This document shows, one piece after another, positions 1 through 40,100 of a stretch of 64,000 nucleotides of DNA. How positions within the stretch are numbered: the first letter of the stretch is position 1; each line of letters begins with the position of its first letter. This stretch comes from Eledone cirrhosa (taxonomy: Eukaryota): contig OZ024755.1 in assembly GCA_964016885.1 (NCBI GenBank), positions 27,652,001 through 27,716,000 on the forward strand. Direction: 5' to 3'. The position numbers were made by a program, and so were the translations under genes. A model generated the notes under the pieces. The model was not told the origin of the DNA. It saw nothing but the letters and a program-made list of their open reading frames with translations, and made no database searches.

Positions 1-1240
1 TATCTGTAGTTGACACCAACTGTCAGTTCTCTGTCTGTAGTTGACTCCAACTGTCAGTTCTGTATCTGTAGTTGACACCAACTGTCAGTTCTGTATCTGT
101 AGTTGACACCAACTGTCAGTTCTCTGTCTGTAGTTGACTCCAACTGTCAGTTCTGTGTCTGTAGTTGACACCAACTGTCAGTTCTGTGTCTGTAGTTGAC
201 ACCAACTGTCAGTTCTGTATCTGTAGTTGACACCAACTGTCAGTTCTGTATCTGTAGTTGACTCCAACTGTCAGTTCTGTATCTGTAGTTGACACCAACT
301 GTCAGTTCTGTATCTGTAGTTGACTCCAACTGTCAGTTCTGTCTGTAGTTGACACCAACTGTCAGTTCAGTATCTGTAGTTGACACCAACTGTCAGTTCT
401 GTATCTGTAGTTGACACCAACTGTCAGTTCTGTATCTGTAGTTGACACCAACTGTCAGTTCTGTCTGTAGTTGACACCAACTGTCAGTTCAGTATCTGTA
501 GTTGACACCAACTGTCAGTTCTGTATCTGTAGTTGACACCAACTGTCAGTTCTGTATCTGTAGTTGACACCAACTGTCAGTTCTCTGTCTGTAGTTGACA
601 CCAACTGTCAGTTCTCTGTATGTAGTTGACACCAACTGTCAGTTCAGTATCTGTAGTTGACTCCAACTGTCAGTTCAGTATCTGTAGTTGACACCAACTG
701 TCAGTTCTGTATCTGTAGTTGACACCAGCTGTCAGTTCTGTATCTGTAGTTGACTCCAACTGTCAGTTCTGTATCTGTAGTTGACACCAACTGTCAGTTC
801 TGTGACTGTAGTTGACACCAACTGTCAGTTCTGTATCTGTAGTTGACACCAACTGTCAGTTCTGTATCTGTAGTTGACACCAACTGTCAGTTCTCTGTCT
901 GTAGTTGACACCAATTGTCAGGTCTGTGTCTGTAGTTGACACCAACTGTCAGTTCTGTATCTGTAGTTGACACCAACTGTCAGTTCTGTGTCTGTAGTTG
1001 ACACCAATTGTCAGTTCTATGTCTGTAGTTGACACCAACTGTCAGTTTTGTCTTTAGTTGACTCCAACTGTCAGTTCTGTGTCTGTAGTTGACACCAACT
1101 GTCAGTTATGTCTGTAGTTGACTCCAACTGTCAGCTCTGTATCTGTAGTTGACACCAACTGTCAGTTCTGTGTCTGTAGTTGACACCAATTGTCAGTTCT
1201 GTGTCTGTAGTTGAGTCTAACTGTCAGTTCTGTATCTGTA
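1..1240. repeat. 31-bp tandem minisatellite (TATCTGTAGTTGACACCAACTGTCAGTTCTG), runs off the window start
   Basis: About 40 head-to-tail units, some 29 bp; internal hairpin AGTTG-ACAC-CAACT. Confidence 0.97.
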
Positions 1241-4200
1241 GTTGACACCAACTGTCCTTGCCAACACAGTTCTGTGTCTGTAGTTGACACCAACTGTCCT
1301 TGCCAACACAGTTCTGTGTCTGTAGTTGACACAAACTGTCCTTGCCAACACAGTTCTGTGTCTGTAGTTGACACAAACTGTCCTTGCCAATGCAGTTCTG
1401 TATCTGTAGTTGACACAAACTCTCCTTGCCAACACAGTTCTGTGTCTGTAGTTGACACAAACTGTCCTTGCCAATGTAGTTCTGTATCTGTAGTTGACAC
1501 CAACTGTCCTTGCCAACACAGTTCTGTGTCTGTAGTTGACACAAACTGTCCTTGCCAACACAGTTCTGTGTCTGTAGTTGACACAAACTGTCCTTGCCAA
1601 TGCAGTTCTGTATCCGTAGTTGACACAAACTCTCCTTGCCAACACAGTTCTGTGTCTGTAGTTGACACCAACTATCCTTGCCAATGCAGTTCTGTATCTG
1701 TAGTTGACACCAACTGTCCTTGCCAACACAGTTCTGTATCTGTAGTTGACACCAACTGTCCTTGCCAACGCAGTTCTGTATCTGTAGTTGACACCAACTG
1801 TCCTTGCCAATGCAGTTCTGTATCTGTAGTTGACACAAACTGTCCTTGCCAACGCAGTTCTGTATCTGTAGTTGACACCAACTGTCCTTGCCAACACAGT
1901 TCTGTATCTGTAGTTGACACCAACTGTCCTTGCCAACGCAGTTCTGTATCTGTAGTTGACACCAACTGTCCTTGCCAATGCAGTTCTGTATCTGTAGTTG
2001 ACACAAACTGTCCTTGCCAACGCAGTTCTGTATCTGTAGTTGACACAAACTGTCCTTGCCAACACAGTCCTGTATCTGTAGTTGACACAAACTGTCCTTG
2101 CCAATGCAGTTCTGTATCTGTAGTTGACACCAACTGTCCTTGCCAACGCAGTTCTGTATCTGTAGTTGACACCAACTGTCCTTGCCAACGCAGTTCTGTA
2201 TCTGTAGTTGACACCAACTGTCCTTGCCAATGCAGTTCTGTATCTGTAGTTGACACCAACTGTCCTTGCCAACGCAGTTCTGTATCTGTAGTTGACACAA
2301 ACTGTCCTTGCCAACACAGTCCTGTATCTGTAGTTGACACCAACTGTCCTTGCCAATGCAGTTCGGTATCTGTAGTTGACACAAACTGTCCTTGCCAACG
2401 CAGTTCTGTATCTGTAGTTGACACAAACTGTCCTTGCCAACACAGTTCTGTATCTGTAGTTGACACCAACTGTGCTTGCCAACACAGTTCTGTATCTGTA
2501 GTTGACACCAACTATCCTTGCCAACACAGTTCTGTATTTGTAGTTGACACCAACTGTCCTTGCCAACACAGTTCTGTATCTGTAGTTGACACCAACTGTC
2601 CTTGCCAACACTGTTCTGTATCTGTAGTTGACACAAACTGTCCTTGCCAACACAGTTCTGTGTCTGTAGTTGACACCAACTGTCCTTGCCAACACAGTTC
2701 TGTATCTGTAGTTGACACCAACTGTCCTTGCCAACACAGTTCTGTATTTGTAGTTGACACCAACTGTCCTTGCCAACACAGTTCTGTATCTGTAGTTGAC
2801 ACCAACTGTCCTTGCCAACACAGTTCTGTATTTGTAGTTGACACCAACTGTCCTTGCCAACACAGTTCTGTATCTGTAGTTGACACCAACTGTCCTTGCC
2901 AACACAGTTCTGTATCTGTAGTTGACACCAACTGTCCTTGCCAACACAGTTTTGTATCTGTAGTTGACACAAACTGTCCTTGCAACACAGTTCTGTATCT
3001 GTAGTTGACACCAACTGTCCTTGCCAACACAATCCTGTATCTGTAGTTGACACCAACTGTCCTTGCCAACACAATCCTGTATCTGTAGTTGACACCAACT
3101 GTCCTTGCCAACACAGTTCTGTATCTGTAGTTGACACAAACTGTCCTTGCCAACACAGTTCTGTATCTGTAGTTGACACCAACTGTCCTTGCCAATACAG
3201 TTCTGTATCTGTAGTTGACACCAACTGTCCTTGCCAACACAGTTCTGTATCTGTAGTTGACACCAACTGTCCTTGCCAACACAGTTCTGTATCTGTAGTT
3301 GACACCAACTGTCCTTGCCAATACAGTTCTGTATCTGTAGTTGACACCAACTGTCCTTGCCAACACAGTTCTGTATCTGTAGTTGACACCAACTGTCCTT
3401 GCCAACACAGTTCTGTATTTGTAGTTGACACCAACTGTCCTTGCCAACACATTTCTGTATCTGTAGTTGACACAAACTGTCCTTGCCAACACAGTCCTGT
3501 ATCTGTAGTTGACACCAACTGTCCTTGCCAACACATTTCTGTATCTGTAGTTGACACCAACTGTCCTTGCCAACACAGTTCTGTATCTGTAGTTGACACC
3601 AACTGTCCTTGCCAACACATTTCTGTATCTGTAGTTGACACCAACTGTCCTTGCCAACACAGTTCTGTATCTGTAGTTGACACCAACTGTCCTTGCCAAC
3701 ACAGTTCTGTATCTGTAGTTGACACAAACTGTCCTTGCCAACACAGTTCTGTATCTGTAGTTGACACCAACTGTCCTTGCCAACACAGTTCTGTATCTGT
3801 AGTTGACACAAACTGTCAGTTCTGTGTCTGTAGTTGACACCAATTGTCAGTTCTGTGTCTGTAGTTGAGTCTAACTGTCAGTTCTGTATCTGTAGTTGAC
3901 ACCAACTGTCCTTGCCAACACAGTTCTGTGTCTGTAGTTGACACCAACTGTCCTTGCCAACACAGTTCTGTGTCTGTAGTTGACACAAACTGTCCTTGCC
4001 AACACAGTTCTGTGTCTGTAGTTGACACAAACTGTCCTTGCCAATGCAGTTCTGTATCTGTAGTTGACACAAACTCTCCTTGCCAACACAGTTCTGTGTC
4101 TGTAGTTGACACAAACTGTCCTTGCCAATGTAGTTCTGTATCTGTAGTTGACACCAACTGTCCTTGCCAACACAGTTCTGTGTCTGTAGTTGACACAAAC

Positions 4201-7200
4201 TGTCCTTGCCAACACAGTTCTGTGTCTGTAGTTGACACAAACTGTCCTTGCCAATGCAGTTCTGTATCCGTAGTTGACACAAACTCTCCTTGCCAACACA
4301 GTTCTGTGTCTGTAGTTGACACCAACTATCCTTGCCAATGCAGTTCTGTATCTGTAGTTGACACCAACTGTCCTTGCCAACACAGTTCTGTATCTGTAGT
4401 TGACACCAACTGTCCTTGCCAACGCAGTTCTGTATCTGTAGTTGACACCAACTGTCCTTGCCAATGCAGTTCTGTATCTGTAGTTGACACAAACTGTCCT
4501 TGCCAACGCAGTTCTGTATCTGTAGTTGACACCAACTGTCCTTGCCAACACAGTTCTGTATCTGTAGTTGACACCAACTGTCCTTGCCAACGCAGTTCTG
4601 TATCTGTAGTTGACACCAACTGTCCTTGCCAATGCAGTTCTGTATCTGTAGTTGACACAAACTGTCCTTGCCAACGCAGTTCTGTATCTGTAGTTGACAC
4701 AAACTGTCCTTGCCAACACAGTCCTGTATCTGTAGTTGACACAAACTGTCCTTGCCAATGCAGTTCTGTATCTGTAGTTGACACCAACTGTCCTTGCCAA
4801 CGCAGTTCTGTATCTGTAGTTGACACCAACTGTCCTTGCCAACGCAGTTCTGTATCTGTAGTTGACACCAACTGTCCTTGCCAATGCAGTTCTGTATCTG
4901 TAGTTGACACCAACTGTCCTTGCCAACGCAGTTCTGTATCTGTAGTTGACACAAACTGTCCTTGCCAACACAGTCCTGTATCTGTAGTTGACACCAACTG
5001 TCCTTGCCAATGCAGTTCGGTATCTGTAGTTGACACAAACTGTCCTTGCCAACGCAGTTCTGTATCTGTAGTTGACACAAACTGTCCTTGCCAACACAGT
5101 TCTGTATCTGTAGTTGACACCAACTGTGCTTGCCAACACAGTTCTGTATCTGTAGTTGACACCAACTATCCTTGCCAACACAGTTCTGTATTTGTAGTTG
5201 ACACCAACTGTCCTTGCCAACACAGTTCTGTATCTGTAGTTGACACCAACTGTCCTTGCCAACACAGTTCTGTATCTGTAGTTGACACAAACTGTCCTTG
5301 CCAACACAGTTCTGTGTCTGTAGTTGACACCAACTGTCCTTGCCAACACAGTTCTGTATCTGTAGTTGACACCAACTGTCCTTGCCAACACAGTTCTGTA
5401 TTTGTAGTTGACACCAACTGTCCTTGCCAACACAGTTCTGTATCTGTAGTTGACACCAACTGTCCTTGCCAACACAGTTCTGTATTTGTAGTTGACACCA
5501 ACTGTCCTTGCCAACACAGTTCTGTATCTGTAGTTGACACCAACTGTCCTTGCCAACACAGTTCTGTATCTGTAGTTGACACCAACTGTCCTTGCCAACA
5601 CAGTTTTGTATCTGTAGTTGACACAAACTGTCCTTGCAACACAGTTCTGTATCTGTAGTTGACACCAACTGTCCTTGCCAACACAATCCTGTATCTGTAG
5701 TTGACACCAACTGTCCTTGCCAACACAATCCTGTATCTGTAGTTGACACCAACTGTCCTTGCCAACACAGTTCTGTATCTGTAGTTGACACAAACTGTCC
5801 TTGCCAACACAGTTCTGTATCTGTAGTTGACACCAACTGTCCTTGCCAATACAGTTCTGTATCTGTAGTTGACACCAACTGTCCTTGCCAACACAGTTCT
5901 GTATCTGTAGTTGACACCAACTGTCCTTGCCAACACAGTTCTGTATCTGTAGTTGACACCAACTGTCCTTGCCAATACAGTTCTGTATCTGTAGTTGACA
6001 CCAACTGTCCTTGCCAACACAGTTCTGTATCTGTAGTTGACACCAACTGTCCTTGCCAACACAGTTCTGTATTTGTAGTTGACACCAACTGTCCTTGCCA
6101 ACACATTTCTGTATCTGTAGTTGACACAAACTGTCCTTGCCAACACAGTCCTGTATCTGTAGTTGACACCAACTGTCCTTGCCAACACATTTCTGTATCT
6201 GTAGTTGACACCAACTGTCCTTGCCAACACAGTTCTGTATCTGTAGTTGACACCAACTGTCCTTGCCAACACATTTCTGTATCTGTAGTTGACACCAACT
6301 GTCCTTGCCAACACAGTTCTGTATCTGTAGTTGACACCAACTGTCCTTGCCAACACAGTTCTGTATCTGTAGTTGACACAAACTGTCCTTGCCAACACAG
6401 TTCTGTATCTGTAGTTGACACCAACTGTCCTTGCCAACACAGTTCTGTATCTGTAGTTGACACCAACTGTCCTTGCCAACACAGTTCTGTATCTGTAGTT
6501 GACACCAACTGTCCTTGCCAACACAGTTCTGTATCTGTAGTTGACACCAACTGTCCTTGCCAACACAGTTCTGTATCTGTAGTTGACACAAACTGTCCTT
6601 GCCAACACAGTCCTGTATCTGTAGTTGACACAAACTGTCCTTGCCAACACATTTCTGTATCTGTAGTTGACACCAACTGTCCTTGCCAACACAGTTCTGT
6701 ATCTGTAGTTGACACCAACTGTCCTTGCCAACACAGTTCTGTATCTGTAGTTGACACAAACTGTCCTTGCCAACACAGTTCTGTATCTGTAGTTGACACC
6801 AACTGTCCTTGCCAATACAGTTCTGTATCTGTAGTTGACACCAACTGTCCTTGCCAACACAGTCCTGTATCTGTAGTTGACACCAACTGTCCTTGCCAAC
6901 ACAGTTCTGTATCTGTAGTTGACACCAACTGTCCTTGCCAACACAGTTCTGTATCTGTAGTTGACACCAACTGTCCTTGCCAACACAGTTCTGTATCTGT
7001 AGTTGACACCAACTGTCCTTGCCAACACAGTTCTGTATCTGTAGTTGACACAAACTGTCCTTGCCAACACAGTTCTGTATCTGTAGTTGACACCAACTGT
7101 CCTTGCCAACACAGTTCTGTATCTGTAGTTGACACAAACTGTCCTTGCCAACACAGTCCTGTATCTGTAGTTGACACAAACTGTCCTTGCCAACACATTT

Positions 7201-9870
7201 CTGTATCTGTAGTTGACACCAACTGTCCTTGCCAACACAGTTCTGTATCTGTAGTTGACACCAACTGTCCTTGCCAACACAGTTCTGTATCTGCAGTTGA
7301 CACCAACTGTCATTGCCAACACAGTTTTTTATCTGTAGTTGACACAAACTGTCCTTGCCAACACAGTTCTGTATCTGTAGTTGACACCAACTGTCCTTGC
7401 CAACACAGTTCTGTATCTGTAGTTGACACCAACTGTCCTTGCCAACACAGTTCTGTATCTGTAGTTGACACAAACTGTCCTTGCCAACACAGTCCTGTAT
7501 CTGTAGTTGACACAAACTGTCCTTGCCAACACATTTCTGTATCTGTAGTTGACACCAACTGTCCTTGCCAACACAGTTCTGTATCTGTAGTTGACACCAA
7601 CTGTCCTTGCCAACACAGTTCTGTATCTGTAGTTGACACAAACTGTCCTTGCCAACACAGTTCTGTATCTGTAGTTGACACCAACTGTCCTTGCCAATAC
7701 AGTTCTGTATCTGTAGTTGACACCAACTGTCCTTGCCAACACAGTCCTGTATCTGTAGTTGACACCAACTGTCCTTGCCAACACAGTTCTGTATCTGTAG
7801 TTGACACCAACTGTCGTTGCCAACACAGTTCTGTATCTGTAGTTGACACCAACTGTCCTTGCCAATGCAGTTCTGTATCTGTAGTTGACACAAACTGTCC
7901 TTGCCAACACAGTTCTGTATCTGTAGTTGACACCAACTGTCCTTGCCAATACAGTTCTGTATCTGTAGTTGACACCAACTGTCCTTGCCAACACAGTTCT
8001 GTATCTGTAGTTGACACCAACTGTCCTTGCCAATACAGTTCTGTATCTGTAGTTGACACAAACTGTCCTTGCCAACACAGTTCTGTATCTGTAATTGACA
8101 CCAACTGTCCTTGCGAACACAGTTCTGTATCTGTAGTTGACACCAACTGTCCTTGCCAACACAGTTCTGTATCTGTAGCTGACACCAACTGTCCTTGCCA
8201 ACACAGTTCTGTATCTGTAGTTGACACAAACTGTCCTTGCCAACACAGTTCTGTATCTGTAGTTGACACAAACTGTCCTTGCCAACACAGTTCTGTATCT
8301 GTAGTTGACACCAACTGTCCTTGCCAACACAGTTCTGTATCTGTAGTTGACACCAACTGTCCTTGCCAACACAGTTCTGTATCTGTAGTTGACACAAACT
8401 GTCCTTGCCAACACAGTTCTGTGTCTGTAGTTGACACAAACTGTCCTTGCCAACACAGTTCTGTGTCTGTAGTTGACACAAACTGTCCTTGCCAATGCAG
8501 TTCTGTATCTGTAGTTGACACAAACTCTCCTTGCCAACACAGTTCTGTGTCTGTAGTTGACACAAACTGTCCTTGCCAATGTAGTTCTGTATCTGTAGTT
8601 GACACAAACTGTCCTTGCCAATGCAGTTCTGTATCTGTAGTTGACACAAACTCTCCTTGCCAACACAGTTCTGTGTCTGTAGTTGACACCAACTATCCTT
8701 GCCAATGCAGTTCTGTATCTGTAGTTGACACCAACTGTCCTTGCCAACACAGTTCTGTATCTGTAGTTGACACCAACTGTCCTTGCCAACGCAGTTCTGT
8801 ATCTGTAGTTGACACCAACTGTCCTTGCCAACACAGTTCTGTATCTCTAGTTGACACCAACTGTCCTTGCCAACACAATTCTGTATCTGTAGTTGACACC
8901 AACTGTCCTTGCCAACACAGTTCTGTATTTGTAGTTGACACCAACTGTCCTTGCCAACACAGTTCTGTATCTGTAGTTGACACAAACTGTCCTTGCCAAT
9001 GCAGTTCTGTATCTGTAGTTGACACCAACTGTCCTTGCCAACACAGTTCTGTATCTGTAGTTGACACAAACTGTCCTTGCCAACACAGTTCTGTATCTGT
9101 AGTTGACACCAACTGTCCTTGCCAACACAGTTCTGTATCTGTAGTTGACACCAACTGTCCTTGCCAACACAGTTCTGTATCTGTAGTTGACACCAACTGT
9201 CCTTGCCAACACAGTTCTGTATCTGTAGTTGACACCAACTGTCCTTGCCAACACAGTTCTGTATCTGTAGTTGACACCAACTGTCCTTGCCAACACAGTT
9301 CTGTATCTGTAGTTGACACCAACTGTCCTTGCCAACACAGTTCTGTATCTGTAGTTGACACCAACTGTCCTTGCCAACACAGTTCTGTATCTGTAGTTGA
9401 CACCAACTGTCCTTGCCAACACAATTCTGTATCTGTAGTTGACACCAACTGTCCTTGCCAACACAGTTCTGTATTTGTAGTTGACACCAACTGTCCTTGC
9501 CAACACAGTTCTGTATCTGTAGTTGACACAAACTGTCCTTGCCAATGCAGTTCTGTATCTGTAGTTGACACCAACTGTCCTTGCCAACACAGTTCTGTGT
9601 CTGTAGTTGACACCAACTGTCCTTGCCAACACAGTTCTGTATCTGTAGTTGACACCAACTATCCTTGCCAACACAGTTCTGTATCTGTAGTTGACACCAA
9701 CTGTCCTTGCCAACACAGTTCTGTGTCTGTAGTTGACACAAACTGTTCTTGCCAACGCAGTTCTGTATCTGTAGTTGACACAAACTGTCCTTGCCAACAC
9801 AGTTCTGTATCTGTAGTTGACACCAACTGTCCTTGCCCAACACAGTTCTGTATCTGTAGTTGACAACTGT
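1233..9870. repeat. 42-bp tandem satellite (TATCTGTAGTTGACACCAACTGTCCTTGCCAACACAGTTCTG), about 205 units
   Basis: Direct periodicity; equals the 31-mer plus an 11-bp insert; explains all ORFs at 1162-9873. Confidence 0.98.
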
Positions 9871-10268
9871 CAACTCTGTGTCTGCAGCTTCGTTATTGCT
9901 TGAAACTGGTACTTCATGTTTTAGATAAACCAGTTCTACTAGTTGTTCTATAGATCTATCATAACGTGCTGTACCAAAATTTGACTGTCTTAATACTAGT
10001 CATAGATTGAGATATATCGAGATTAATTTGGAGACCTATTTCTTTTGTATTTGCAGCTAAAGGATCAATGGAGCCCTGTAGGCTAGCAATATTATTGTTA
10101 ATAGCAGTAATATCATCTACTTAACATAGATTATAAATTATTTGAACCCCTATAGAGAATCCAGTGCTATTTTCTTGCTCCATTTTTTTCTTTTCTTTTA
10201 AGATAACAGACCCCCCCCCCCTGATAAAATGTTCCCCTGCTTAATATCTTTCATTATATCAACAAATT

Positions 10269-14335: not shown

Positions 14336-14341
14336 TTTATT
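14336..14341 (-). terminator. Candidate polyadenylation signal AATAAA of the calcitonin-like gene
   Basis: AATAAA on the minus strand about 57 nt after the stop; common motif in AT-rich DNA. Confidence 0.35.
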
Positions 14342-14397: not shown

Positions 14398-14569
14398 TCA
14401 GATAACATTGGCACGTTGCTGCAACTTTAATTGAATGGCACTTCTCTTCCTTCGTCCAGGACTTTTTGCACTGTCCAGATAACGCCATCTGTCTAAATCT
14501 ATGGAAGTGTGATACGTGGGACACTGTCCACCAAGTGCTCCTATTTTACTATCACAGCCTCTCTTCCGC
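14398..14569 (-). CDS. Calcitonin-like neuropeptide precursor, last coding exon (mature peptide 14559-14458)
   Basis: Acceptor CTTCTTTTCTTTCTATTGTAG; reads (A)RKR-GCDSKIGALGGQCPTYHTSIDLDRWRYLDSAKSP-G-RRKR-SAIQLKLQQRANVI*: two N-terminal Cys, C-terminal Pro-Gly amidation signal, basic cleavage sites. Confidence 0.9.
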
Positions 14570-14634
14570 CTACAATAGAAAGAAAAGAAGAATGTTTACA
14601 TCAAATAAAAAAAGAAGAAAAAAGATAATAATAA

Positions 14635-15020
14635 TAATTGTTGCTACTTTTGGCACAAGGCCAGCAATTACCCAGTGCATTACTGGTACTTTATTTTATC
14701 GACCCCGTAAGGATGAAAGGCAAAGTTAACCTCGGCGGGATTTGAACTCAGAATGGCAAGGGCCGTAACTCTATGCGTCAAAGCATGGCGTCTGACCCTC
14801 TACCGATACTGCCAATCCACTGCCAAAAAAGATAATAATTGTTTCTACGTTAGGCACAAGGCCAGCAATTATCGCAGTGTATTACTGGTACTTTATTTTA
14901 TCGACCCCGTAAGGATGAAAGGCAAAGTTAACCTCGAGGGGATTTGAACTCAGACCGTAAAGAGGCGTAACTCTATGCTGTAAAGCATGACGTCCGACCC
15001 TCTACCGATACTGCCAATCA
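14635..15020 (-). mobile_element. Two tandem tRNA-SINE copies
   Basis: Reverse complement of the SINE at about 14635-14823 and 14836-15020. Confidence 0.9.
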
Positions 15021-16224: not shown

Positions 16225-16662
16225 ATGGGAATTAAGGAGCACCTCTTCCTAGCAACTGTTGAGTTCGTTCTGCTTTACGGCAGTGAAACGTGGACTATTG
16301 ACGAAGTCCTATGCAAGAGACTTGACGGATGTTACACGAGGATGCTGAGAATGGCTCTCAACGTTTCTTGGAAACAGAAGCTGACAAATAAGGAACTATA
16401 CAGCTCAGTACCACCAGTCTCAAAAAGAGATGCCTGCTGACGAATGAAACTGGCCGGGCACTGCATCCGTCATCCAGAAGAGACAGCATCACAACTTGTG
16501 CTTAGGAAACCGGCGGTCGGACGAAGAAGCGTGGGAAGACAGGCCGTCTCATTCATTGATACCCTGCTGAGAGATGCCAACATTGATAACATCGACGAAC
16601 TGAGAAATGTCATGTTCGACCGGGACGATTGGAGGAGGCGTGCTGAATCTTTGCGAGTGTAA
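16225..16662 (+). mobile_element. RTE-clade LINE 3' fragment with in-frame stop
   Basis: VLLYGSETWT...LDGCYTRMLRMALNVSW...*RMKLAGHCIRH...GRRSVGRQ...DRDDWR typical RTE ORF end. Confidence 0.9.
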
Positions 16663-18559: not shown

Positions 18560-18893
18560 TAACAGCGTCCTTAGATACCAGGAAGTCAGGAACCGCACCA
18601 ACCAGCAGCTAGTCTAGTCTCTTCTGCCATCTGCAAGCGACGCCTGGGCTGGTTTGGGTCACGCTTTGAGACTTCCCCCGGAGAGACTGGCGAACCAAGT
18701 ACTTAAATGGAACCCACAGGGAAGCAGACGGAGAGGGCTACCCAAAATGAACTGGCACCAGACAGTTGAGAGGGACCTGCGAGCGACAAACAGACAATGG
18801 CGGGACGCTGTGCAACTGGCTGCTGACCGAACGCGGTGGAACACTATGATTGCCTCATGCGTCGCAAGACGCGGGAGCTTCTGAGTCTGAGTA
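18560..18893 (+). mobile_element. RTE-type LINE 3' fragment
   Basis: WFGHALRLPPERLANQVLKWNPQGSRRRGLPKMNWHQTVERDL...AADRTRW; short TGAGT tail repeat. Confidence 0.88.
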
Positions 18894-24239: not shown

Positions 24240-25525
24240 CAAGGTGTGGACGATATTTGTTCGCAATTTTCAACTGCTAATTTTATGCAATTTTTTTTTA
24301 CTTCCGTTGTCACTCTTGTCTTCATAAAAACAGTGACTATATTTCCATTATTTATTTTCAGAATAATTGATTATGAATAATTTTGAACCTCCAAATTTGT
24401 GGAAGAGACGCGGAGTTCTTCTTGGAATCCGCGCCGGGAGGACAAATAAAGAAAATTCAGACTTTCTCAGCATCAGCAGGAGAATGGTAGACAAGGTCAG
24501 AAAGGAATTGGAAGATTCAGGATTCGACTACGAAGCAACATCAGCGAGGAAAGCACATGATCGACGATCTGACGCCTTCAGAACGCCTGAGTTCGTCGCT
24601 GAAGTTCAGGATATCATCAACAATGAACCTAGCAAGTCGATGCGTGCCATTGCAAAGGAGAAAGGCGTGGATGAAAAGCTCATTAGGCTGGTGGTACATG
24701 AAGACATTCGCTACGTTTCATACAAGATGACGAAAGGACAATTTCTGTCAAAGGCGATGCAAGAAAAGCGACTGAAGCACGCAAAGAAGCTGATCAACAA
24801 GTTGATTCACCCACTGGAGCCAGGCATGCTGTGGTTTTTCTCCGACGAGAAAAACTTCTGCCAAGACCAGAAGATCAACTCCCAGAACAACAGGTGGCTC
24901 GCTGTCTCATCCAAAGACGTGCCCAGAGTTATGCAGACAAAGTTTCCAGCGACAACATTGGTCTTAGGTGTCGTTAGCAGTCAAGGTGACGTCATGCATC
25001 CTCACTTCTTCCTTGAGGGCCTCAAGCTGAACACCGATGGCTACATCAGCGTTCTGAGCGAGGTAGTAAAGCCCTGGATCGACCAGGTAGCTGCAGGTAG
25101 GCCGTACGTGTGGCAGCAAGACTCAGCGCCCTGCCATACCAGCCAAAAGACCCAAGCCTAGCTGTTAGAGAACTTCGTCGACCACACTTCACCTGACATC
25201 TGGCCTCCCAGCTCGCCTGACTGCAACCCCCTCGACTTCTTTGTGTGGGGCGCAGTGGAACGAGACACCAACAGATCTAGCTGCAATACGAAAGACGATC
25301 TGAAGACCAGGACCACAAGTGCCTTTAGGGGGACAGTGATGAAGGCCTGTAGCCGGTTCCGAGGCCGCCTTGAGGCCGTCATCAAAGCCGGGTTTATCGA
25401 ATGAGATCGAAAGAACAAGTCATGAAGACAAACTGACCCAAGTTTGATAAATAAATCTTAAAAAATAAAACTACTGTGTTACTTTTTCCTAGACTGTAAT
25501 CTTGCGAACAAATATCGTCCGCACC

Positions 25526-28277: not shown

Positions 28278-28355
28278 GCTTGTCTTAGTAGAGTCTGAAG
28301 TCTGTTTTGAAACCTGTTTACTGGTGCATCCCTTGTAATAGGATTGGTACGAATA
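28278..28355 (-). CDS. Calcitonin-like precursor, propeptide exon (78 nt, phase 2-2)
   Basis: Acceptor TTTTTTCTCTTTGATGGTTTTCAG, donor GTGAGT; reads (S)IRTNPITRDAPVNRFQNRLQTLLRQ(A); joins both neighbouring exons in frame. Confidence 0.85.
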
Positions 28356-29209: not shown

Positions 29210-29298
29210 CTGTCTAATTCGTTCAATTGCGGATCATACCAAGCCCAGGTAGATGGAAGCACAAGAAGCAAAGTGAGAAGATAATATAGTGTTGCCAT
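29210..29298 (-). CDS. Calcitonin-like precursor, first coding exon (signal peptide); exon starts at 29315 with 17-nt 5' UTR
   Basis: Acceptor TTTCTATCTATTTTCAG, GCAATGG start context, MATLYYLLTLLLVLPSTWA|WYDPQLNELD(S), donor AG|GTAAAA, phase 2. Confidence 0.87.
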
Positions 29299-31177
29299 TG
29301 CCGTAGAAAAGGAATCTGAAAATAGATAGAAATTTAATATAATATTATACATTAGATCCTATTTCCACGGTTTCTCCATAGCACGGTCAATAAATACTTT
29401 TATGAGCAACAATTATTTATTACCTCCATTGGAAGCATTTGAAGAATCTGATTGGAAATAAGCCCTCTCATGTCAGTTACGAATATAAGATGAATAATAG
29501 GAATATTTCAATGAATTGTGTGAAGTTGTGATTAGAATAGTGTATGTATGTATGTATGTATGGTCCCGTAATTCCTGATAGAATCGTAGGAGCGCCGTAT
29601 TGACATACAGCGTTCCTAGGGCATTTTTTAAAGCCTGGCGGAGCCCATCCCTCTCTAGGCCTGAGTACAGCAGATTTCTTCCAGAGAAAGAGAGAAAATG
29701 AGAAAGAGATATAGAGGAAGACTCGACCCCAGTACTAGACTGGTACTTTTTTTATCGACCTCGAGAGGATTAAAGGCAAAGTTGACCTCGATGGGATTTG
29801 AACTCAGAAAGCAGAGAGCCGGAAAAAATACTATAAAGTATTCTTATCCGACGTTCTAACGACTTTGCCAATTCGCCGCCATAGTGGATCTATATCGATT
29901 AACAAAAGCATACGTGTCAAGTTGCATGTTCAAATGAATGTCTCCTTATTAAAGAAGGAAATAAAGCAATAGATAAAGGAACTTATAGAAATTGTCTTTT
30001 CAAATAAAGTACTGCATTCCTCCCAAAGGGTTCTAAAATGAGACCCGTGGAATCAATAGGGCTTTAACATTAGTTTCTTTGTCTTCCATATAGACTACAT
30101 ACATATCAATTACTAACATCATTCCAAATTATTTCCTAAGAGAGTTATATGATGAATTTACAATTGCCTGTTTCACGTGGTCAGAAAAGATGAACGGCAG
30201 CGGTGGTGATTTTCCTTACAAATTGCTTAGGATTTGCTCCTTTGCAAATCTAAATCCTCTGAACACCCAAAAATTAATCTTCAGAGTTGGGTAGATTAGA
30301 TTCATTGTAATCTCAACAGAGGAATTGTCGAACTAATTGAGCATAATTCAATTAGTCTTTGACTAGGATGAAAGTATGGTGATAAACAAAGATCCTGTGG
30401 TTTTTATGAGGAAAGATCGACATACCATTAGGACAATTCGTCAGCCCTGATGCACCAATGGGTCTGCGGATGAAAGCTATGTCGCTAACCTCAGCTAAAA
30501 ATCACATATTTTGCACCATTCTCACACCTGCTTCAAATGAGGAGCATGGAGTACATGTAATAAGCTGTGTGGTAAACATAGGCAGACATCTTTGATATTC
30601 TTAAGTTGATGATCTTATTAAAAGGCTCTTCTATATCCGCGACATGGCTTTCACCCGCAGACCCATTGGTGCATGAGGATTGAAGAAAAATGCTTTAATG
30701 GTATGTCGATCTTTCCTCATAAAAACGGCAGGAACTTTATTTATCACCATACGCTGCCCCTAGTTAACGACTCCCGGAAAGACGACAGAGAATGTAGAAA
30801 AGGTTACTACTGTTGACTGGCATTAATGGTGGTGTTGTATACCATCAGGTCTATGACTTTTCACTGAGTAATCTGTAATATTATATCTATGACTAATGAC
30901 ACCCAATTATGGTGATGTCTAACATAGTGACAATGGTTGTTGAAGGAATGACTCAACGATAGTGGTGATAACATTATGTCTACTCCTATTGACTGATTTA
31001 ATATTTGTTTCTACTTTTGGCACAAAGCCAGCAATTATCCCATTGCATTACTGGTACTTTATTTTATCGACCCCGTATGGATGAAACGCAAAGTTAACCT
31101 TGGCGGGATTTAATAATGGCGGTATATAACAGTATGTCTATGACTTTAGACAGATCCAAACATTACGACTGTTTAAA

Positions 31178-34100
31178 TCAATGTAGTGTCTAACCTTATA
31201 TCTGTTTCTGGTGACTATGTCAATGTAGTGTCTAACCTTATATCTGTTTCTGGTGACTATGACAATGTAGTGTCTAACCTTATATCTGTTTCTGGTGACT
31301 ATGTCAATGTAGTGTCTAACATTATATCTGTTTCTGGTGAGTATGTCAATGTAGTGTCTAACATTATATCTGTTTCTGGTGACTATGTCAATGTAGTGTC
31401 TAACATTATATCTGTTTCTGGTGACTATGTCAATGTAGTGTCTAACATTATATCTGTTTCTGGTGACTATGACAATGTAGTGTCTAACATTATATCTGTT
31501 TCTGGTGACTATGACAATGTAGTGTCTAACATTATATCTGTTTCTGGTGACTATGACAATGTAGTGTCTAACATTATATCTGTTTCTGGTGACTATGTCA
31601 ATGTAGTGTCTAACATTATATCTGTTTCTGGTGACTATGACAATGTAGTGTCTAACATTATATCTGTTTCTGGTGACTATGACAATGTAGTGTCTAACAT
31701 TATATCTGTTTCTAGTGACTATGTCAATGTAGTGTCTAACCTTATATCTGTTTCTGGTGACTATGTCAATGTAGTGTCTAACCTTATATCTGTTTCTGGT
31801 GACTATGACAATGTAGTGTCTAACCTTATATCTGTTTCTGGTGACTATGTCAATGTAGTGTCTAACCTTATATCTGTTTCTGGTGACTATGACAATGTAG
31901 TGTCTAACCTTATATCTGTTTCTGGTGACTATGTCAATGTAGTGTCTAACCTTATATCTGTTTCTGGTGACTATGCCAATGTAGTGTCTAACATTATATC
32001 TGTTTCTGGTGACTATGTCAATGTAGTGTCTAACATTATATCTGTTTCTGGTGACTATGTCAATGTAGTGTCTAACATTATATCTGTTTCTGGTGACTAT
32101 GTCAATGTAGTGTCTAACATTATATCTGTTTCTGGTGACTATGTCAATGTAGTGTCTAACATTATATCTGTTTCTGGTGAGTATGTCAATGTAGTGTCTA
32201 ACATTATATCTGTTTCTGGTGACTATGCCAATGTAGTGTCTAACCTTATATCTGTTTCTGGTGACTATGTCAATGTAGTGTCTAACATTATATCTGTTTC
32301 TGGTGACTATGCCAATGTAGTGTCTAACCTTATATCTGTTTCTGGTGACTATGTCAATGTAGTGTCTAACCTTATATCTGTTTCTGGTGACTATGTCAAT
32401 GTAGTGTCTAACCTTATATCTGTTTCTGGTGACTATGTCAATGTAGTGTCTAACATTATATCTGTTTCTGGTGACTATGCCAATGTAGTGTCTAACCTTA
32501 TATCTGTTTCTGGTGACTATGTCAATGTAGTGTCTAACATTATATCTGTTTCTGGTGACTATGTCAATGTAGTGTCTAACCTTATATCTGTTTCTGGTGA
32601 CTATGTCAATGTAGTGTCTAACATTATATCTGTTTCTGGTGACTATGCCAATGTAGTGTCTAACATTATATCTGTTTCTGGTGACTATGTCAATGTAGTG
32701 TCTAACATTATATCTGTTTCTGGTGACTATGACAATGTAGTGTCTAACATTATATCTGTTTCTGGTGAGTATGTCAATGTAGTGTCTAACCTTATATCAG
32801 TTTCTGGTGACTATGTCAATGTAGTGTCTAACATTATATCTGTTTCTGGTGACTATGTCAATGTAGTGTCTAACATTATATCTGTTTCTGGTGACTATGT
32901 CAATGTAGTGTCTAACCTTATATCTGTTTCTGGTGACTATGACAATGTAGTGTCTAACATTATATCTGTTTCTGGTGACTATGTCAATGTAGTGTCTAAC
33001 ATTATATCTGTTTCTGGTGACTATGTCAATGTAGTGTCTCACATTATATCTGTTTCTGGTGACTATGTCAATGTAGTGTCTAACCTTATATCTGTTTCTG
33101 GTGACTATGTCAATGTAGTGTCTAACATTATATCTGTTTCTGGTGACTATGTCAATGTAGTGTCTAACATTATATCTGTTTCTGGTGACTATGTCAATGT
33201 AGTGTCTAACATTATATCTGTTTCTGGTGACTATGTCAATGTAGTGTCTAACATTATATCTGTTTCTGGTGAGTATGTCAATGTAGTGTCTAACATTATA
33301 TCTGTTTCTGGTGACTATGTCAATGTAGTGTCTAACCTTATATCTGTTTCTGGTGACTATGTCAATGTAGTGTCTAACATTATATCTGTTTCTGGTGACT
33401 ATGTCAATGTAGTGTCTAACCTTATATCTGTTTCTGGTGACTATGTCAATGTAGTGTCTAACATTATATCTGTTTCTGGTGAGTATGTCAATGTAGTGTC
33501 TAACATTATATCTGTTTCTGGTGACTATGTCAATGTAGTGTCTAACCTTATATCTGTTTCTGGTGACTATGTCAATGTAGTGTCTAACATTATATCTGTT
33601 TCTGGTGACTATGTCAATGTAGTGTCTAACCTTATATCTGTTTCTGGTGAGTATGTCAATGTAGTGTCTAACATTATATCTGTTTCTGGTGACTATGTCA
33701 ATGTAGTGTCTAACATTATATCTGTTTCTGGTGACTATGTCAATGTAGTGTCTAACATTATATCTGTTTCTGGTGACTATGTCAATGTAGTGTCTAACAT
33801 TATATCTGTTTCTGGTGACTATGTCAATGTAGTGTCTAACCTTATATCTGTTTCTGGTGACTATGTCAATGTAGTGTCTAACCTTATATCTGTTTCTGGT
33901 GAGTATGTCAATGTAGTGTCTAACCTTATATCTGTTTCTGGTGACTATGTCAATGTAGTGTCTAACATTATATCTGTTTCTGGTGACTATGTCAATGTAG
34001 TGTCTAACATTATATCTGTTTCTGGTGAGTATGTCAATGTAGTGTCTAACATTATATCTGTTTCTGGTGACTATGTCAATGTAGTGTCTAACCTTATATC

Positions 34101-37100
34101 TGTTTCTGGTGACTATGTCAATGTAGTGTCTAACCTTATATCTGTTTCTGGTGACTATGTCAATGTAGTGTCTAACCTTATATCTGTTTCTGGTGACTAT
34201 GTCAATGTAGTGTCTAACCTTATATCTGTTTCTGGTGACTATGTCAATGTAGTGTCTAACCTTATATCTGTTTCTGGTGACTATGTCAATGTAGTGTCTA
34301 ACCTTATATCTGTTTCTGGTGACTATGTCAATGTAGTGTCTAACCTTATATCTGTTTCTGGTGACTATGTCAATGTAGTGTCTAACCTTATATCTGTTTC
34401 TGGTGACTATGTCAATGTAGTGTCTAACATTATATCTGTTTCTGGTGACTATGCCAATGTAGTGTCTAACCTTATATCTGTTTCTGGTGACTATGTCAAT
34501 GTAGTGTCTAACATTATATCTGTTTCTGGTGACTATGTCAATGTAGTGTCTAACATTATATCTGTTTCTGGTGACTATGTCAATGTAGTGTCTAACATTA
34601 TATCTGTTTCTGGTGACTATGTCAATGTAGTGTCTAACATTATATCTGTTTCTGGTGACTATGTCAATGTAGTGTCTAACATTATATCTGTTTCTGGTGA
34701 CTATGCCAATGTAGTGTCTAACATTATATCTGTTTCTGGTGACTATGCCAATGTAGTGTCTAACATTATATCTGTTTCTGGTGAGTATGTCAATGTAGTG
34801 TCTAACATTATATCTGTTTCTGGTGACTATGCCAATGTAGTGTCTAACATTATATCTGTTTCTGGTGACTATGCCAATGTAGTGTCTAACATTATATCTG
34901 TTTCTGGTGACTATGTCAATGTAGTGTCTAACATTATATCTGTTTCTGGTGACTATGACAATGTAGTGTCTAACCTTATATCTGTTTCTGGTGACTATGT
35001 CAATGTAGTGTCTAACATTATATCTGTTTCTGGTGACTATGTCAATGTAGTGTCTAACCTTATATCTGTTTCTGGTGACTATGTCAATGTAGTGTCTAAC
35101 ATTATATCTGTTTCTGGTGACTATGTCAATGTAGTGTCTAACCTTATATCTGCTTCTGGTGACTATGTCAATGTAGTGTCTAACCTTATATCTGCTTCTG
35201 GTGACTATGTCAATGTAGTGTCTAACCTTATATCTGTTTCTGGTGACTAAGCCAATGTAGTGTCTAACATTATATCTGTTTCTGGTGACTATATCAATGT
35301 AGTGTCTAACCTTATATCTGTTTCTGGTGACTAAGCCAATGTAGTGTCTAACATTATATCTGTTTCTGGTGACTATGTCAATGTAGTGTCTAACATTATA
35401 TCTGTTTCTGGTGACTATGTCAATGTAGTGTCTAACATTATATCTGTTTCTGGTGACTATGCCAATGTAGTGTCTAACATTATATCTGTTTCTGGTGACT
35501 ATGTCAATGTAGTGTCTAACATTATATCTGTTTCTGGTGACTATGTCAATGTAGTGTCTAACCTTATAACTGTTTCTGGTGACTATGTCAATGTAGTGTC
35601 TAACATTATATCTGCTTCTGGTGACTATGACAATGTAGTGTCTAACATTATATCTGTTTCTGGTGACTATGTCAATGTAGTGTCTAACCTTATAACTGTT
35701 TCTGGTGACTATGTCAATGTAGTGTCTAACATTATATCTGCTTCTGGTGACTATGTCAATGTAGTGTCTAACATTATATCTGCTTCTGGTGACTATGACA
35801 ATGTAGTGTCTAACATTATATCTGTTTCTGGTGACTATGTCAATGTAGTGTCTAACCTTATAACTGTTTCTGGTGACTATGTCAATGTAGTGTCTAACAT
35901 TATATCTGCTTCTGGTGACTATGTCAATGTAGTGTCTAACATTATATCTGCTTCTGGTGACTATGACAATGTAGTGTCTAACATTATATCTGTTTCTGGT
36001 GACTATGTCAATGTAGTGTCTAACCTTATAACTGTTTCTGGTGACTATGTCAATGTAGTGTCTAACATTATATCTGCTTCTGGTGACTATGTCAATGTAG
36101 TGTCTAACATTATATCTGTTTCTGGTGACTATGCCAATGTAGTGTCTAACATTATATCTGTTTCTGGTGACTATGTCAATGTAGTGTCTAACATTATATC
36201 TGCTTCTGGTGACTATGACAATGTAGTGTCTAACATTATATCTGTTTCTGGTGACTATGTCAATGTAGTGTCTAACATTATATCTGCTTCTGGTGACTAT
36301 GACAATGTAGTGTCTAACATTATATCTGTTTCTGGTGACTATGTCAATGTAGTGTCTAACATTATATCTGTTTCTGGTGACTATGCCAATGTAGTGTCTA
36401 ACATTATATCTGTTTCTGGTGACTATGTCAATGTAGTGTCTAACATTATATCTGTTTCTGGTGACTATGTCAATGTAGTGTCTAACATTATATCTGTTTC
36501 TGGTGACTATGCCAATGTAGTGTCTAACATTATATCTGTTTCTGGTGACTATGTCAATGTAGTGTCTAACATTATATCTGTTTCTGGTGACTATGTCAAT
36601 GTAGTGTCTAACATTATATCTGTTTCTGGTGACTATGCCAATGTAGTGTCTAACATTATATCTGTTTCTGGTGACTATGACAATGTAGTGTCTAACATTA
36701 TATCTGTTTCTAGTGACTATGCCAATGTAGTGTCTAACATTATATCTGTTTCTGGTGACTATGTCAATGTAGTGTCTAACATTATATCTGTTTCTGGTGA
36801 CTATGTCAATGTAGTGTCTAACATTATATCTGTTTCTGGTGACTATATCAATGTAGTGTCTAACCTTATATCTGTTTCTGGTGACTAAGCCAATGTAGTG
36901 TCTAACATTATATCTGTTTCTGGTGACTATGTCAATGTAGTGTCTAACATTATATCTGTTTCTGGTGACTATGTCAATGTAGTGTCTAACATTATATCTG
37001 TTTCTGGTGACTATGTCAATGTAGTGTCTAACCTTATATCTGTTTCTGGTGACTAAGCCAATGTAGTGTCTAACATTATATCTGTTTCTGGTGACTATAT

Positions 37101-40100
37101 CAATGTAGTGTCTAACCTTATATCTGTTTCTGGTGACTAAGCCAATGTAGTGTCTAACATTATATCTGTTTCTGGTGACTATGTCAATGTAGTGTCTAAC
37201 ATTATATCTGTTTCTGGTGACTATGCCAATGTAGTGTCTAACCTTATATCTGTTTCTGGTGACTATGACAATGTAGTGTCTAACCTTATATCTGTTTCTG
37301 GTGACTATGTCAATGTAGTGTCTAACATTATATCTGTTTCTGGTGACTAAGCCAATGTAGTGTCTAACATTATATCTGTTTCTGGTGACTATGCCAATGT
37401 AGTGTCTAACCTTATATCTGTTTCTGGTGACTATGTCAATGTAGTGTCTAACATTATATCTGTTTCTGGTGACTATGTCAATGTAGTGTCTAACATTATA
37501 TCTGTTTCTGGTGACTATGTCAATGTAGTGTCTAACATTATATCTGTTTCTGGTGACTATGTCAATGTAGTGTCTAACATTATATCTGTTTCTGGTGACT
37601 ATGTCAATGTAGTGTCTAACATTATATCTGTTTCTGGTGACTATGTCAATGTAGTGTCTAACATTATATCTGTTTCTGGTGACTAAGCCAATGTAGTGTC
37701 TACATTATATCTGTTTCTGGTGACTATGTCAATGTAGTGTCTAACATTATATCTGTTTCTGGTGACTATGTCAATGTAGTGTCTAACATTATATCTGTTT
37801 CTGGTGACTATGTCAATGTAGTGTCTAACATTATATCTGTTTCTGGTGACTATGTCAATGTAGTGTCTAACATTATATCTGTTTCTGGTGACTATGTCAA
37901 TGTAGTGTCTAACATTATATCTGTTTCTGGTGACTATGTCAATGTAGTGTCTAACATTATATCTGTTTCTGGTGACTATGTCAATGTAGTGTCTAACATT
38001 ATATCTGCTTCTGGTGACTATGTCAATGTAGTGTCTAACATTATATCTGTTTCTGGTGACTATGTCAATGTAGTGTCTAACATTATATCTGCTTCTGGTG
38101 ACTATATCAATGTAGTGTCTAACATTATATCTGCTTCTGGTGACTATGTCAATGTAGTGTCTAACATTATATCTGCTTCTGGTGACTATGTCAATGTAGT
38201 GTCTAACATTATATCTGTTTCTGGTGACTATGTCAATGTAGTGTCTAACATTATATCTGCTTCTGGTGACTATATCAATGTAGTGTCTAACATTATATCT
38301 GCTTCTGGTGACTATGTCAATGTAGTGTCTAACATTATATCTGCTTCTGGTGACTATGTCAATGTAGTGTCTAACATTATATCTGTTTCTGGTGACTATG
38401 CCAATGTAGTGTCTAACATTATATCTGTTTCTGGTGACTATGCCAATGTAGTGTCTAACATTATATCTGTTTCTGGTGACTATGTCAATGTAGTGTCTAA
38501 CATTATATCTGTTTCTGGTGACTATGTCAATGTAGTGTCTAACCTTATATCTGTTTCTGGTGACTAAGCCAATGTAGTGTCTAACATTATATCTGTTTCT
38601 GGTGACTATGTCAATGTAGTGTCTAACCTTATATCTGTTTCTGGTGACTATGTCAATGTAGTGTCTAACCTTATATCTGTTTCTGGTGACTATGTCAATG
38701 TAGTGTCTAACATTATATCTGCTTCTGGTGACTATATCAATGTAGTGTCTAACATTATATCTGTTTCTGGTGACTATGTCAATGTAGTGTCTAACATTAT
38801 ATCTGTTTCTGGTGACTATGTCAATGTAGTGTCTAACATTATATCTGCTTCTGGTGACTATATCAATGTAGTGTCTAACATTATATCTGTTTCTGGTGAC
38901 TATATCAATGTAGTGTCTAACATTATATCTGTTTCTGGTGACTATGTCAATGTAGTGTCTAACATTATATCTGTTTCTGGTGACTAAGCCAATGTAGTGC
39001 CTAACATTATATCTGTTTCTGGTGACTATGTCAATGTAGTGTCTAACATTATATCTGTTTCTAGTGACTATGTCAATGTAGTGTCTAACATTATATCTGT
39101 TTCTGGTGACTATGTCAATGTAGTGTCTAACATTATATCAGTTTCTGGTGACTATGACAATGTAGTGTCTAACATTATATCTGTTTCTGGTGACTAAGCC
39201 AATGTAGTGTCTAACATTATATCTGTTTCTGGTGACTAAGCCAATGTAGTGTCTAACATTATATCTGTTTCTGGTGACTATGACAATGTAGTGCCTAACA
39301 TTATATCTGTTTCTGGTGACTAAGCCAATGTAGTGTCTAACATTATATCTGTTTCTGGTGACTATGTCAATGTAGTGTCTAACATTATATCTGTTTCTAG
39401 TGACTATGTCAATGTAGTGTCTAACCTTATATCTGTTTCTGGTGACTATGCCAATGTAGTGTCTAACATTATATCTGTTTCTGGTGACTATGCCAATGTA
39501 GTGTCTAACATTATATCTGTTTCTGGTGACTATGTCAATGTAGTGCCTAACATTATATCTGTTTCTAGTGACTATGTCAATGTAGTGTCTAACCTTATAT
39601 CTGTTTCTGGTGACTATGTCAATATAGTGTCTAACATTATATCTGTTTCTGGTGACTATGCCAATGTAGTGTCTAACATTATATCTGTTTCTGGTGACTA
39701 TGTCAATATAGTGTCTAACATTATATCTGTTTCTAGTGACTATGTCAATGTAGTGTCTAACCTTATATCTGTTTCTGGTGACTATGCCAATGTAGTGTCT
39801 AACATTATATCTGTTTCTAGTGACTATGTCAATGTAGTGTCTAACCTTATATCTGTTTCTGGTGACTATGTCAATATAGTGTCTAACATTATATCTGTTT
39901 CTGGTGACTATGTCAATGTAGTGTCTAACCTTATATCTGTTTCTGGTGACTATGTCAATATAGTGTCTAACATTATATCTGTTTCTGGTGACTATGTCAA
40001 TGTAGTGCCTAACATTATATCTGTTTCTGGTGACTATGCCAATGTAGTGTCTAACCTTATATCTGTTTCTGGTGACTATGTCAATGTAGTATCTAACATT

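Follow-up and report, generated by a model that had tools for sequence, protein, structure and literature searches.

The window analysed here, a stretch of 64,000 nucleotides of the Eledone cirrhosa genome, contains a real and intact calcitonin-type gene, of a kind already known and with a ring no larger than some described before. The gene is very probably, in octopods, the orthologue of the LGGxC-type calcitonins of molluscs and annelids (the last peptide of the 'CALCI' precursor), from which the upstream peptide has been lost and in which the disulfide ring has gained three residues.

By tblastn and enumeration of exon boundaries, three GT-AG coding exons (Table 1) join into an intact precursor of 112 amino acids, collinear with the annotated Octopus proteins. 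Intron 1 is 854 nt long and intron 2 is 13,708 nt. In exon 3 the frame encodes RKR, then the peptide, followed by G and RRKR, and closes with 14 further residues and a stop. Its acceptor consists of a pyrimidine tract and AG, and the junction agrees with the annotated Octopus protein. An alternative in-frame acceptor at 14560 would remove the RKR, and was rejected because the annotated orthologues retain it. At the acceptor itself (14569), several genomic read-through ORFs of relatives start to match only from the RKR that precedes the peptide, a hint that the position of the intron may be old. An AG acceptor lies directly upstream of the ATG, so a further 5' exon is probable; none was found within the window, nor was an exon encoding an upstream peptide.

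Table 1. Features of the calcitonin-type gene of E. cirrhosa, by position in the window.
Feature	Position	Strand	Remarks
Coding exon 1, 89 nt	29210..29298	-	ATG and start of pro-region; GT donor; tblastn 83% to O. bimaculoides residues 1-29
Predicted signal peptide, 19 residues	29298-29242	-	Hydropathy peak 2.8; cleavage site placed by eye
Coding exon 2, 78 nt, pro-region	28278..28355	-	tblastn 81% to residues 30-56; AG/GT ends leave the frame open
Coding exon 3, 172 nt	14398..14569	-	Cleavage site, mature peptide, amidation signal, C-terminal extension, TGA
RKR prohormone-convertase site	14560..14568	-	Invariant among octopod relatives
Predicted mature calcitonin-type peptide, 34 residues	14458..14559	-	Cys2-Cys13 ring, 21-residue tail, Pro-amide
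Codon of first Cys	14556-14554	-	Ten residues lie between it and second Cys
Likely three-residue insertion, IGA	14536..14544	-	Directly before conserved LGG; MAFFT gap here
Codon of second Cys	14523-14521	-	
Thr two residues past second Cys	14515-14517	-	
Gly amide donor and RRKR cleavage site	14443..14457	-	
Candidate poly(A) signal	14336..14341	-	First of several AATAAA hexamers past the stop; AT-rich DNA

The window also holds repeats and remnants of mobile elements. A tandem pair of an interspersed SINE-like repeat (14631-14817 and 14832-15019, plus strand, 90-93% alike) begins some 60 nt away from the acceptor of exon 3; a 17-base motif of this repeat is present 17 times in the window as against none in shuffled sequence. 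Very long minisatellite arrays (about 1200-9900 and 31100-48200) give rise to spurious long ORFs in several frames. Inside intron 2 is a broken remnant of a Tc1/mariner-like transposase (24367-25401, plus strand; Pfam HTH_Tnp_Tc3_2 at E 0.0078, below the cut-off). Two other fragments (16225-16659 and 18618-18881, plus strand), which resemble C-terminal remnants of LINE reverse transcriptases, have no Pfam match.

Translation of the minus strand confirms the 34-residue C-x10-C peptide described in the earlier note, preceded by RKR and followed by G-RRKR, and both motifs claimed for it (LGGxC and YLxSxxSP) are present. Its predicted monoisotopic mass is 3706.76. When a profile of 53 calcitonin last peptides from outside the octopods was compared with 1685 six-frame pieces of the window, it matched the peptide frame at E 1.4e-10 and the next best piece at E 0.46, so that the match is not due to chance and the calcitonin-type identity holds. 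Named members among the relatives retrieved by profile search include Urechis calcitonin-1 and -2. The features expected of a protostome calcitonin-type precursor are found: a signal peptide (by hydropathy), flanking basic sites, an N-terminal Cys pair, and Pro followed by the Gly donor. Both the disulfide and the amidation are predicted. Assignment to the DH31 type was rejected, since that type has no cysteine pair and two Cys are present here. The ESM Atlas feature matches to DH31 (0.91) are level with those to kisspeptin and are generic, and the atlas returns nothing beyond generic look-alikes of neuropeptide precursors. Pfam assigns neither the peptide nor the exon nor any of the octopod precursors to a family; it is equally silent on the annelid and Aplysia precursors, giving no calcitonin-family match for relatives named calcitonin. 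The single match of a PDB sequence search, a cellulase at E 1.1, was judged to be chance. A search of sequencing runs lists no RNA data set carrying the sequence.

A search with the exon 3 translation identifies two proteins among 16 candidates, from Octopus bimaculoides (Ocbimv22002419 / XP_014768345.1) and Argonauta hians (GAB1598914.1); other members of their clusters come from O. vulgaris and O. sinensis (XP_029637143.1). These orthologues have the same precursor layout and C-x10-C ring as the E. cirrhosa gene; their mature peptides depart from it at four positions, and their C-terminal extension is shorter. Against O. bimaculoides, identity is 16/19 in the signal peptide, 33/40 in the pro-region and 30/34 in the mature peptide; for Argonauta the figures are 15/19, 25/40 and 30/34, the mature peptide being better kept than the pro-region. 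A single-sequence neighbour search gives only two octopod clusters, and a search of 1.84 billion representatives gives five matches: the Argonauta protein, a pair of annelid precursors of calcitonin type, and two unrelated repeat proteins (P0006 and P0008), which lack the motifs and were dropped.

The octopod gene is already catalogued as a calcitonin in related octopuses. The UniRef name of the O. bimaculoides protein is 'Calcitonin peptide-like domain-containing protein', and the available part of the PMC8557429 supplement places the O. bimaculoides sequence among calcitonins. In the PMC6425005 supplement, as far as it was available, the precursors of O. bimaculoides and O. vulgaris stand within a 20-sequence block that also holds Platynereis calcitonin; this block has no heading, and was taken as calcitonin by way of a truncated Ennucula sequence named in the text. 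No paper remarking on the octopod ring insertion or testing the peptide was found in the openly accessible article text covered. The accessible portions of PMC12919962 and PMC10725132 hold nothing on the octopod peptide.

The description of the ring as unusually large stands in comparison with vertebrates and with the peptide's own orthologues, which have seven residues between the cysteines, but it does not stand for lophotrochozoan calcitonins overall, where the spacing runs from x6 to x10. Vertebrate calcitonin and CGRP and echinoderm calcitonin share the N-terminal Cys pair and a central helix and, except for CGRP, the Pro-amide, while their rings have 4-5 residues between the cysteines, unlike the octopod x10 (PMC6002491, part available). 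The same source gives 4-5 residues for deuterostomes and 7-9 for protostomes; the ten of E. cirrhosa are just beyond the latter range, yet inside that of the published mollusc and annelid sequences available. By our own count on the sequence in the accessible part of PMC7200681, mussel CALCIIa has ten residues between its cysteines, as does a similar Modiolus peptide in the available part of the PMC6425005 supplement. The figure of about 7-8 given for bivalves in the earlier note is too narrow, their span by count being x6-x10. Mussel CALCIIa has been synthesised, and according to the available text of PMC7200681 it activated CALCRIIc, though only with an EC50 of 2.6e-5 M, and raised calcium uptake by the mantle. 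With x10 precedents among molluscs and with catalogued Octopus orthologues, the peptide is largely a described one, as the earlier note had allowed it might prove, the one-to-one relationship being judged from motifs and by-eye comparison.

Ring size was surveyed in 56 precursors (55 profile-search matches and P0009), one of which, P0060, is truncated: it is missing the first Cys, and no ring was scored for it. This set is biased, as the query contained annelid words and the matches are mutually related, the named ones largely annelid and most unnamed, and within it the last peptides (n=55) show x7 in 52 cases, x9 in one and x10 in two, both octopods. Among the upstream peptides (n=12) there is one x8, seven x9 and four x10 (Capitella, Urechis calcitonin-2, Paralvinella and one unnamed). 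In the published PMC6425005 block, as available and counted by eye, 17 of the 19 last peptides are x7, and the two Octopus sequences alone have x10. The tail after the second Cys is 21 residues long in all 55 last peptides and also in E. cirrhosa. Mussel CALCIIa and the annelid middle peptides (Capitella, Urechis 'calcitonin-2', Paralvinella) resemble the octopod peptide in C-x10-C and Pro-amide, but they occupy another position in the precursor and have another sequence; their x10 and that of the octopods were probably reached independently.

The last peptides of LGGxC type (mussel CALCIb, oyster CALCI, Lottia, Aplysia, chitons, Platynereis, Owenia and Idiosepius 226650) have LGGxC-x-T, the 21-residue tail, YLxSxxSP-amide and a polybasic site after Gly, as in E. 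cirrhosa. The E. cirrhosa peptide differs from them in its x10 ring, in a Pro after the second Cys, in the loss of a conserved Glu and Ala, and in having no upstream peptide. The C-x7-C ring typical of the subtype is thus absent, and because x7 is found in 52 of 55 last peptides the E. cirrhosa peptide is regarded as a variant of it. In the published sequences available, LGGxC is typical of the CALCI type and LGFHC of CALCII. O. bimaculoides has a second calcitonin gene, x7 and non-LGG, in the accessible part of the PMC7200681 supplement, and the available text of that paper describes a two-gene pattern in bivalves and gastropods. The pygmy squid Idiosepius likewise has two precursors in the published material available, one of which (226650) has an x7 LGG ring and, compared by eye, agrees with the E. 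cirrhosa N-terminus in 16 of 33 columns. The simplest reading would be two genes per cephalopod, with the octopod x10 gene as the LGG-type orthologue. The comparison is one of motifs, profiles and by-eye matching, with Idiosepius as the one decapodiform genus covered.

The earlier note had favoured a divergent, possibly lineage-specific paralogue. On one such reading the gene would be an octopod-specific duplicate which diverged to a new receptor, with an x7 LGG-type orthologue persisting elsewhere in octopod genomes. The strong divergence of the N-terminal half would fit such a duplicate, as would the many family B receptor genes of Octopus (18 table entries in the available part of the PMC7200681 supplement). 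However, among the 55 profile matches, most of them unnamed, there is no named octopod x7 protein; for each of the two Octopus species the published set, as available, gives only the x10 gene, the second calcitonin gene of O. bimaculoides is without LGG, and no second calcitonin-like exon was found in the window. The pygmy-squid precursor shares the N-terminus and keeps x7, and on motifs and by-eye comparison the evidence favours an LGGxC-type last-peptide orthologue, leaving a paralogue improbable. An origin from the upstream ('a' or middle) peptide would make an insertion needless, since rings of x8-x10 are normal there, as the counts above show, and the mussel x10 peptide is, in the published material available, itself an upstream peptide. 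It is nevertheless very improbable: exon 3 scores 37.4 bits with the last-peptide profile against 11.6 bits with the upstream-peptide profile (the latter from 12 sequences only), BLAST on two Owenia peptides gives 39.7 bits for the last and 25.0 bits for the upstream one, and LGGxC-x-T and WxYLxS are last-peptide motifs.

Least credible of all is that the peptide is a salivary-gland venom component mimicking the calcitonin or DH31 of prey, although octopod salivary glands do carry neuropeptide mimics, and the peptide sequence diverges from its family. In the accessible text of a survey of 822 gland transcripts (bioRxiv 10.64898/2026.02.02.703354), the source for such mimics, those named are of stanniocalcin, luqin, myosuppressin, tachykinin and neurotensin, with no calcitonin mimic; the models used included chordate calcitonin, CGRP and DH31 but no molluscan calcitonin, so this absence is weak evidence. 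Furthermore, the ring has moved away from the vertebrate x5 and the mollusc x7 rather than towards them, and 30 of 34 mature residues are conserved across octopods.

With the gene read as the LGG-type orthologue, the expansion of the ring is lineage-specific, as proposed earlier: octopods have x10 and the orthologous peptides x7. Exon 3 shows 19/42 identities to annelid last peptides (Owenia, Paralvinella) with a single 3-residue gap in the ring, and this, together with the constant length of the tail, indicates a clean insertion. Where the gap falls within the ring is not unique, since BLAST alignments put it in either of two places. The inserted tripeptide, IGA here and IGG in Octopus, is similar to the neighbouring LGG. 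Random insertions were equally LGG-like in 2.8% (IGA) and 0.14% (IGG) of 100,000 trials, in a test chosen after the motif was noticed, and between the inserted and the LGG codons only 5 of 9 bases agree. A source in tandem duplication of LGG is plausible, though the case for it is weak, and IGA, common to E. cirrhosa and Argonauta, may be the older state. The insertion would postdate the divergence of squids and octopods and predate that of Argonauta and Octopus. All 52 x7 relatives share the GG of the ring, the Thr at Cys+2, two Ser and a Pro without exception, and E. cirrhosa retains them; the same Thr also occurs in vertebrate CGRP and amylin sequences. At the C-terminus W, Y, L, S, S and P agree with the family majority, while Pro, Tyr, Thr and Leu at +1, +3, +5 and +9 after the second Cys are found in none of the 52. 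From the sequences, octopods appear to have inserted three residues and altered those after the second Cys, with the C-terminal half conserved.

Prohormones in general lose their signal peptide, are cleaved by convertases at basic sites, and have a C-terminal Gly converted to an amide. Processing of the E. cirrhosa precursor would accordingly remove the signal peptide, cut at RKR and RRKR, convert Gly to give Pro-amide and close the Cys2-Cys13 disulfide, releasing a 34-residue neurohormone. By analogy with relatives, this peptide would activate a secretin-family calcitonin-type GPCR through cAMP and Ca2+, with water and ion balance or muscle tone as its most likely role. In oyster, Cragi-CT1b and Cragi-CT2 activate their own receptors via Ca2+ and cAMP (PMC12638048, second-hand, part available), and CT2 has been linked to gill water and ion balance (PMC8398477, second-hand, part available). 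CT2 probably corresponds to the single-peptide oyster CALCI, which would make it the orthologue of the octopod gene.

AlphaFold predicts a helix at residues 17-29 of the E. cirrhosa peptide, starting four residues past Cys13 (mean pLDDT 64.6, ring below 50), and in one x7 control a helix at 9-26, from its second Cys (pLDDT 72.0); the predicted start is about 5 residues later in E. cirrhosa, at low confidence. The hydrophobic moment is 0.27, as against 0.22-0.61 (median 0.36) in relatives. The modelling, though weak for both peptides, suggests that the activating end of the octopod peptide has been remodelled. In the two-domain model of class B GPCRs, the C-terminal half of the ligand docks on the ectodomain and its N-terminal part engages the receptor core. 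The conserved C-terminal half would then dock on the ectodomain, with the remodelled ring and first helical turn engaging the core. Since the residues at +1, +3, +5 and +9 occur in none of the 52 relatives, receptor pairing could have shifted, and a different receptor pharmacology, as the earlier note proposed, is plausible because the receptor-activating end is what changed. A fuller version is tentative, and on balance unlikely: that the activating end was rebuilt (x7 to x10 by LGG duplication, Pro after the second Cys, a shortened helix) with the docking end kept, and co-evolved with one family B receptor, without cross-reaction with squid or bivalve ligands and in the service of an octopod-specific job.

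The analysis gives a clean gene model in one more octopod, and the published protostome range of 7-9 residues between the cysteines widens to about 6-10. The remaining interest is in an octopod-specific insertion and remodelling within an otherwise almost invariant peptide. The squid x7 and octopod x10 orthologues, with their conserved C-terminus, offer a direct ligand-swap test of ring size in the activation of calcitonin receptors. If the activating end has indeed been rebuilt, the octopod peptide would be a natural experiment on resizing the activation pocket of a class B GPCR.
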